Below are positions 40,883 to 42,158 of a DNA stretch of 64,000 bases, piece after piece; position 1 is the first letter of the stretch, and each line of letters opens with the position of its first letter. Origin of the DNA: an uncultured Dehalococcoidia bacterium (GTDB lineage Bacteria > Chloroflexota > Dehalococcoidia > Lucifugimonadales > UBA3495). A program made the position numbers and the translations under genes. The stretch spans positions 24,755 through 88,754 of the forward strand of contig CATMOE010000006.1 of NCBI GenBank assembly GCA_950072105.1. Reading direction: 5' to 3'. The notes beneath the pieces are model-generated. The model saw only the letters and a program-made list of their open reading frames with translations, did no database searches and was not told the DNA's origin.

Positions 40883-41584
40883 ATGACTTCTCCGAAAGAA
40901 CTTTTCTCCCTTCAGGAACTGGACCTAGCTCTCGACCAGATCGACAGCAAGACAGCCAAGGCGGAAAAAGAGGTGAGCATAGGGGCAGCAATGGGGGGAT
41001 TGGAGGAGGCATTACAGAAAGAATCACAGAGCCTTGAGGAATTCCAATCGCTGATGAAAACTCGGCGCGTGGAAGCTGAAACCCAGCGAGAGCGGTCCAC
41101 TCACTTGGACGGACAACTTTACGGTGGTGAGGTAACCAGTCCATCGGCCTTGGAGAGTTTGGAGCAAGAAGCTGCTAACGTTCGAGCGCAGATGGAGAAA
41201 CTAGACCTCGAACTTACCGAGCTTTCATCGCGCACCGAGGAGTCTCAGAACAAGTGCACCGAGATGGAGCAGCGATTGTCGGAGAACCGCACCGCCTGGG
41301 AATCCCGCCAATCCGAACTAACTGAGTCGTTGAACCGGCTGTCATTGGAACGTAAGGACATCGCCAGTCAGAGGGGTGATCTGGTGGCCACCTTAGACCC
41401 AGCCGGAGTTCAGCATTACGAAAAACTTCGCAACGCCAAAGGCGGGCTGGCGGTGGCCAAGGTCTCAAGGGGCCTTTGTCAGGCGTGCCGCATGGCTCTG
41501 CCCACGCAACAACAACAAAGTGTGCGGAATGGCCGCCAGACCGTTCTGTGCAGCACCTGCGGCCGGATTCTTTTCCTTACCTAG
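40883..41584 (+). CDS. Coiled-coil + C4 zinc-ribbon protein (DUF164/CT398-like)
   Basis: LFSLQELD; long coil; YEKLR, CQAC...CSTCGRIL. Confidence 0.9.
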   Translation: MTSPKELFSLQELDLALDQIDSKTAKAEKEVSIGAAMGGLEEALQKESQSLEEFQSLMKTRRVEAETQRERSTHLDGQLYGGEVTSPSALESLEQEAANVRAQMEKLDLELTELSSRTEESQNKCTEMEQRLSENRTAWESRQSELTESLNRLSLERKDIASQRGDLVATLDPAGVQHYEKLRNAKGGLAVAKVSRGLCQACRMALPTQQQQSVRNGRQTVLCSTCGRILFLT

Positions 41585-41684: not shown

Positions 41685-41714
41685 TTGACCCTCTGAAAAT
41701 TGGTGTGCTACAGT
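41685..41714 (+). promoter_or_regulatory. rnpB promoter
   Basis: TTGACC-N18-TACAGT with TG extension. Confidence 0.55.
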
Positions 41715-41720
41715 CGAGTT

Positions 41721-42158
41721 GGAGAGGGCAGGTATACTGGGTGGCCGCCGCCCCGTACTTCGTTGGAAGAATCGGGGGGGAGGAAAGTCCGGGCTCCACT
41801 GGGCAGGGTGCTGGGTAACTCCCAGGCTTCTAAGGCGGCATTGCTGCCGCCTTAGGGGACGGATAGTGGCACAGAAACATACCGTCCCGGTCCGCCGGGA
41901 TAAGGGTGAAATCGGACGGTAAGAGCGTCCGGCCGTCTGCGGTGACGCAGCGGCGGCTAAACCCCACCTGGAGCAAGGCCGAATAGGGGGACTATGGGCG
42001 CCCGGCCCGTCCCCGGGTTGGCTGCTTGACCCCGATGGCAACATCGTCCCGTTCGCGGGATCCCGGCGGCATCAAATGCCATCGGGAGGGCTAGATAGAT
42101 GACCACCGCCCCGCAAGGGGATACAGAACCCGGCTTACAGGTCTACCTGACCCTCCCC
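41721..42158 (+). ncRNA. rnpB: RNase P RNA, type A, with extended P9 and a P18 insertion
   Basis: GAGGAAAGTCCGGGCTCC, ACAGAAA, GGGTGAAA, GGTAAGAG, AAACCCCACCTGGAGCAAG, CTAGATAGATG, ACAGAACCCGGCTTA; terminal P1 pairing. Confidence 0.97.

Follow-up and report, generated by a model that had tools for sequence, protein, structure and literature searches.

A probable undescribed variant of type A RNase P RNA with a four-way junction inside P18 in uncultured marine Dehalococcoidia of the SAR202 type

Type A RNase P RNAs (RF00010), such as those of E. coli (M1) and T. maritima, have a P4 core, P13/P14, P16/P17, an L15 loop with a GGU motif, and an 8-bp P18 capped by a GNRA tetraloop (L18); the GGU motif pairs with the tRNA CCA end (PMC9945441, excerpt). 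Excerpts of a published study (PMC8457005) describe the L18-P8 and L8-P4 contacts as orienting the domains, with a minor part for L9-P1, and report the loss of P18 in some clades and a drop in efficiency of about 6- to 37-fold when L18-P8 is disrupted in three type A RNAs; deletion of P18 lowered the rate more than 3000-fold with a model substrate (PMC11143913, excerpt). Extra helices in this region are described in two settings. The active P RNA of Methylacidiphilum infernorum, a type A RNA, has an extended P9 and a helix named P18.1, called 'rarely found' in type A in the excerpt consulted (PMC9945441); read by eye from the sequence given there, P18.1 corresponds to two side-by-side hairpins of the main junction without a GNRA loop. 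In types B and C, the consulted parts of PMC12974513 and PMC2858038 describe P15.1 (P18.0, ES2.1.1), a post-LBCA expansion adjoining P18 and distal to the tRNA face; in type B, where P6 is lost, it makes a bridge to P5.1, and type C has no P13/P14. Loss of P13/P14 and gain of P10.1 and P15.1 served as the defining features of type C (Thermomicrobium) or type B (PMC2858038, excerpt). The accretion model, as excerpted from PMC12974513, holds that expansion segments branch on a trunk helix and can be excised without disturbing the trunk.

The window, i.e. the whole stretch of 64,000 nucleotides analysed here (contig CATMOE010000006.1; source genome G000), encodes one bacterial type A rnpB at 41729-42153 on the plus strand, the single RF00010 match in its genome, covering model positions 1-367 with 237 bits (gathering score 100). 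P1 probably extends a few nucleotides beyond this match on both sides, as read by eye. The Rfam alignment shows P13/P14, P16/P17 and the GGU of L15, and neither P5.1 nor P10.1; it places a 40-nt insertion state inside P18. By its sequence the RNA belongs to type A and is predicted to cleave 5' leaders from pre-tRNAs. Assignment to type C (Thermomicrobium) or type B was considered and rejected, with P13/P14 aligned and the insert lying within P18. The genome (92% complete) also encodes rnpA (PF00825, 96.9 bits), as the genomes of described type A systems do, and gave no match to PF08745, which we take to be HARP. Upstream of rnpB, at 40883-41584, is a C4 zinc-ribbon/CT398-like gene, a synteny found at 106 labelled loci up to class level and absent in genus g2; three tRNA genes lie on the minus strand at 2525-2901. 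The features of the locus are the following:

41685..41714, plus strand: sigma-70-like promoter match with an extended -10 (9/12), by consensus match only, adjoining rnpB upstream
41729..42153, plus strand: rnpB, type A RNase P RNA (RF00010, 237 bits)
41811..41825, plus strand: P8/L8, receptor helix for L18 (parsed as the CTGGG/CCCAG helix)
41826..41858, plus strand: lengthened P9, 33 nt, non-GNRA loop, a co-occurring lineage feature (core parse)
42016..42018, plus strand: GGU motif of L15, pairing with the tRNA CCA end (sequence, Rfam alignment)
42030..42037, plus strand: P18 5' strand, unbroken 8 nt, 3 for the basal stem and 5 for the L18-capped stem (folding)
42038..42041, plus strand: L18, GNRA tetraloop GCAA, expected P8 donor (GNRA at the same offset in 164/165 long P18s)
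42042..42046, plus strand: 3' strand of the distal, L18-capped P18 stem (pair probabilities, compensatory changes)
42047..42060, plus strand: inserted hairpin 1, 5 bp, UUCG loop (folding; 11-60 nt in relatives)
42061..42087, plus strand: inserted hairpin 2, 11 bp with a 1x1 loop (folding; 8-48 nt in relatives)
42088..42090, plus strand: basal P18 stem, 3' strand, which closes the four-way junction (folding)

An earlier note on this DNA, made from the letters alone, had described a clean 41-nt insertion of two hairpins in P18. It lies in the 3' strand, and the note's coordinates proved exact. The four-way junction is both the MFE and the centroid structure of P18 (-31.5 kcal/mol, z -3.35; matched by 1 shuffle in 200), the 41-nt insert folded alone reaches z -3.76 (0 of 200 shuffles as good), and folding after removal of 42047-42087 gives back the perfect 8-bp hairpin with a GNRA loop that the note had foreseen; the alignment to RF00010 that it proposed is a full-model match with the insertion state in P18. 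In the distal stem four pairs have probabilities above 0.99 and the junction pair 0.74, and compensatory changes occur in 4 of the 5 pairs (93 sequences). In this folding model the P18 of the window has 8 bp, a GNRA L18 and a P8 receptor helix as in type A, and the L18-P8 contact is predicted. Unlike the described type A RNAs, it has a P18 split by two hairpins and a lengthened P9, and the GNRA loop of L9 is mostly lost in junction-bearing RNAs; unlike the P18.1 of M. infernorum, its hairpins branch inside P18 and L18 is kept; and unlike types B and C, it keeps P13/P14 and P16/P17, is without P5.1 and P10.1, and has unconserved loops in the new hairpins. The reading that we prefer, to which we give a probability of about 0.7, sees in the insert an old, lineage-specific expansion segment carried by a normal, transcribed type A RNA; it would be near-neutral and tolerated, with L18 docking kept.

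What is constant in such RNAs was examined in 165 distinct long P18s, chosen by length or Rfam match and not by their loop (L080, L108, L117 and L153, of other structure, and six loci without an extractable core were left out). A GNRA loop occupies P18 positions 9-12 in 164 of them, the exception (L094) belonging to another lineage. The preservation of P18 geometry claimed by the note is supported, the 8-nt 5' strand and the GNRA loop being constant in 164/165. All 8 pairs of P18 can form in 162/165, with the split chosen freely in GC-rich sequence; the branch point lies at 3/5 in 82, 2/6 in 41 and 4/4 in 39, the sum being fixed. A two-hairpin fold of the insert was obtained for 164 of the set, with a length of 24-84 nt (median 41), all linkers zero in 96/164, and 105 and 112 distinct sequences in the two loops. 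Both hairpins were at least 60% paired in 158/164 inserts, compared to 324 of 3280 shuffles. Pairing was also maintained across relatives. Among 48 sequences, grouped in six clusters that align without gaps, 628 of 659 cells are paired, and compensatory changes affect 17 of the 83 pairs of the insert; in a 16-sequence set 97% are paired compared to 32-58% in slid controls, with modest covariation (both sides changed in 3 pairs, a value that 66 of 500 shuffles reach). A sequence-only MAFFT and RNAalifold run on 93 P18s of 57-66 nt, which align poorly, recovered the distal stem and not the hairpins. The CTGGG/CCCAG helix of P8 is present in 162/168 junction-bearing cores and common in plain relatives too (some P8 rows of the P8/P9 parse are offset by one). 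No complementarity beyond shuffles links the loops of the new hairpins with one another or with L3, L9, L12 or L19; the smallest p in 10 comparisons on 162 RNAs was 0.06.

The note had also pointed to an alternative pairing of the insert's 3' arm with P18, which would destroy the GNRA loop, and to a potential conformational switch; in such a switch hairpin 2 would pair with the P18 5' strand and sequester L18. The complementarity itself stands: 42031-42040 can pair with 42077-42086 over 10 bp, and it is real in G001 as well as in G000. The switch is not supported. The forced fold reaches -26.8 kcal/mol, 4.7 kcal/mol worse than the MFE, and none of the ten pairs has a probability above 0.05. 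Across the long P18s the usual value of this pairing is 4-5 bp; 10 bp are reached in 2/165 and 8 bp in one more, all of genus g1, and the closing pair of L18 has a probability above 0.5 in 161/165. A switch is in our estimation hardly credible, and the alternative pairing may be a misfolding trap at most.

The insert is genuine sequence and no assembly artefact; G001 and G002, of the same genus as G000, carry it in diverged form, with substitutions, and a metatranscriptome contig spans it unchanged. (G001 has two near-identical rnpB copies, L016 and L031, on separate contigs.) Among 24 runs listed, 6 RNA runs contain the stretch, and three of these and one raw DNA run were compared; the RNA contigs give presence only, with no strand, ends or level. 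In X15 (record 8) a 128-nt contig over 42022-42149 has 0 differences from the window, at a depth of 4931 compared to 591 upstream of rnpB and 0 downstream, so the insert, whose absence from reads would have told against the note, is present in RNA; in X17 a contig over 42027-42300 has 4 differences, and X23 has 1-2 raw reads across the insert, which, like the k-mer shares of the DNA runs, are too weak to use. That the insert is cut out of the RNA, like an intervening sequence or intron, could be read from five X16 contigs that leave the window at 42046 and continue with letters found downstream of the insert. From 42102 on, however, their continuation differs from the window, in 3 of its 4 last letters, which would fit other organisms whose P18 is plain; no direct joint of 42046 to 42088 is listed in the four runs, and the deep X15 contig retains the insert. 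We regard excision as most improbable, although contigs speak for the presence of the long form and not against a processed form beside it.

The insert had been presented as a peculiarity of one genome, which it is not. A GTDB scan for P18s of 42-72 nt found at least 118 loci; among the 118 matches listed, 101 are titled Dehalococcoidia (several named SAR202 cluster) and 13 Chloroflexota. In the family of the window, RF00010 was matched in 116 of 120 genomes, 115 above the cut-off, and the junction is present in 108 of these 115. Among the 117 rnpB copies of the family, P18 is long in 109 and plain, at 20 nt, in 8 (seven in genus g2, the other a second, divergent copy in G098), and none has a P18 of a length between 20 and 44 nt. 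The second copy of G098 (L156) is probably bin contamination, the bin having 9% contamination. In the order, anchors were matched in 207 of 301 genomes; among the 150 of 210 matches listed, 21 P18s are long and 129 have 20-21 nt, the long ones falling in six other families (f51 11, f5 5, f20 2, f34 1, f41 1 and f44 1, among the matches listed). One f20 rnpB (G192, L217) is identical outside P18 to the copy of G071 (family f1) and may be misbinned, and the f5-type rnpBs L443 and L448-L450 have an enlarged, possibly branched P19 region after P18. Outside the order no long P18 was found in 375 genomes of the class, of which just 107 matched the anchors, all with a short P18. At phylum level 91 of 101 genomes matched, and among 70 loci examined no readable one has a junction (43 P18s parsed at 20-22 nt, 25 read by eye or mis-parsed, 2 without a core). 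By eye, some Chloroflexota rnpBs have no P18 at all (L405, L417, L419-L421), and others (L424-L426, L429) have two side-by-side hairpins at its place, type C-like. A P18 with this insert is usual throughout the window's family and in a part of the order, but is not the P18 of the class; the survey of SAR202 and Dehalococcoidia rnpBs that the note had called for finds it family-wide and in part of the order, and in 0/375 class genomes beyond, 107 of them with an anchor match.

The note had ascribed the hairpins to palindromic elements, and they could be what is left of a hairpin cassette or mobile palindromic element inserted in rnpB: the insert is palindromic with flush edges, the same architecture occurs in an unrelated lineage (G872, G873), and an ancient element origin is conceivable. 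Against this, the insert is single-copy, and the genome-wide count of TCCCG..CGGGA hairpins that the note had proposed gave 12 TCCCG-N4-CGGGA against 12.1 expected, no enrichment, with 12 control pentamers behaving alike. Such ends are found in only 4/164 inserts, 111/164 have no terminal inverted repeat, and none of the 164 has end direct repeats longer than 2 nt; the inserts of 159 relatives have no match in G000 outside rnpB beyond scattered 16-20-nt words. The many copies, conserved sequence, terminal repeats or target duplication expected of a mobile palindromic repeat (REP/RPE-like) are thus not seen. A current mobile element is largely refuted, and we consider the whole explanation very unlikely. 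Copying of the insert from other helices of the same RNA was rejected too: word sharing with the own RNA's other helices (mean 7.38) is no higher than with other RNAs (7.06-7.36).

The history of the insert was followed in two trees, one of rnpB without P18, built from 130 of 202 labelled rows after thinning within groups, and one of RpoB from 30 genomes. Most junction-bearing RNAs fall in one moderately supported group of the rnpB tree (SH-aLRT 87), and the 7 plain and 6 junction-bearing RNAs of g2 are interleaved; monophyly of the plain g2 RNAs was rejected with both genes (AU p 0.0002 for rnpB without P18, 4e-109 for RpoB in 30 genomes), and the RpoB tree has 3 changes among the family rows. 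Since the junction is present in every other sampled member of the family in which g2 is nested, we infer about three exact losses of the module in this genus, one loss followed by regains through recombination being a possible alternative. Exact loss could plausibly come about by slippage across the two hairpins, which abut. The RpoB sequences of g2 (L348-L362) stand on a very long branch (1.05), and their open frame, which has an insertion in its N-terminal half, is about 1530-1620 aa long, that of relatives about 1270-1300 aa. In the order, plain RNAs of f14 and f16 sit within the junction-bearing RpoB group; a single gain with losses only in g2 was tried and rejected (AU p 6e-05), and one origin with several losses, in a clade including f14 and f16, was not (p 0.096), so that the order may have had one origin or several.

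A further scan asked for long P18s in which a canonical GNRA and a basal G-C pair are both present. Of its 10 loci, six are from Dehalococcoidia, three have an extra hairpin side by side with a plain P18, and one, L447 (G872), has the same four-way junction, split 4/4, with a GCAA loop. A second hairpin stands beside a plain P18 at L442, L444 and L446 (one Spirochaetaceae, two Rhodocyclales), and is GNRA-capped in the Rhodocyclales rnpBs. The RpoBs of G872 and G873 (the genome of L094) are 74.8% identical to each other and 42-54% to those of the SAR202 order, their best matches are at 60% or less and spread over many phyla, and among 24 sampled relatives 15 have a P18 of 19-22 nt, 8 gave no parse and 1 no match. 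In this lineage the junction seems to have arisen independently. The rnpB of the lineage also has remodelled helices in the P5/P7 region and P16/P17, and in L454 P3 and P16/17 are near-copies of each other.

Junction-bearing RNAs differ from plain ones in P9 as well. A P9 of at least 17 nt is found in 163/168 junction cores compared to 6/70 plain cores outside g2, and a GNRA L9 in 35/168 compared to 63/70. From sequence comparison, this co-occurrence hints at a function of the module, and the side helix could be a functional brace in place of the lost L9-P1 contact, packed against the long P9 or P1/P8 by backbone or A-minor contacts that do not depend on sequence. Its near-universal retention in the family would agree with this, as would the type B RNAs, in which an added helix beside P18 does make a new bridge (PMC12974513, excerpt). 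But a long P9 occurs without the junction in all 7 plain g2 RNAs, as well as in G036 and G038, whose RNAs are plain too; in G159 the junction is combined with a short GNRA P9, and the new hairpins have no conserved loop or pairing; L9-P1 adds little in the RNAs tested in the excerpt of PMC8457005, and the association may be a single event because kin share both traits. A brace is for these reasons doubtful, if less so than the other alternatives. Slightly more doubtful still is the wider proposal that SAR202 rebuilt the interdomain bracing of RNase P, the new helical stack of the P18 junction packing on the long P9 in place of L9-P1, as an undescribed subtype; if it were true, an unrelated lineage would have reached the same junction independently, and g2 would offer natural pairs with and without it.

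We return to the insert as a tolerated expansion segment. As the comparison shows, the dimensions of the strut are constant, P8 is unchanged, the side arms are free in length, stem sequence and loops, the module is present in RNA and its occurrence is all-or-none. Structurally, the two abutting hairpins would form a near-perfect four-helix junction in P18, the two halves of P18 stacking along the unbroken 5' strand with L18 still docking P8, and the new hairpins stacking on each other as a side helix towards the solvent. A perfect four-helix junction is present in the hairpin ribozyme. A pair of hairpins would leave no helix end unstacked, as a single hairpin would, which would explain the gain and loss of the module as a unit; the clean edges of the insert would reflect selection that holds an essential strut at its length, rather than the work of precise insertion machinery. 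Such a module would be tolerated, near-neutral, at most mildly stabilising, and losable. Retention in 108/115 family genomes is high for a neutral module and counts against near-neutrality.

Among type A RNase P RNAs, the P18 four-way junction is probably an architectural variant that had not been described. The excerpts consulted of PMC12974513 contain no P18-internal double branch and those of PMC2858038, PMC4919922, PMC1874661 and PMC8172020 no branched P18; our literature search, which lay outside the classic surveys (Haas and Brown 1998, RNase P Database), found no P18 four-way junction and no SAR202 rnpB structure. P18 is usually taken as a strut of fixed length, and the real constraint is on the 8-nt 5' strand, the GNRA loop and the 8 bp, with the 3' strand accepting a double branch of 24-84 nt. 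The family offers a clean natural case of RNA accretion, with gain and repeated exact loss, in which close relatives differ by the whole module; the accretion idea is therefore directly testable. The insert site is an engineering point for grafting domains onto RNase P RNA, and by the insert itself, used as an rnpB marker, part of an uncultured lineage of marine bacteria can be recognised.
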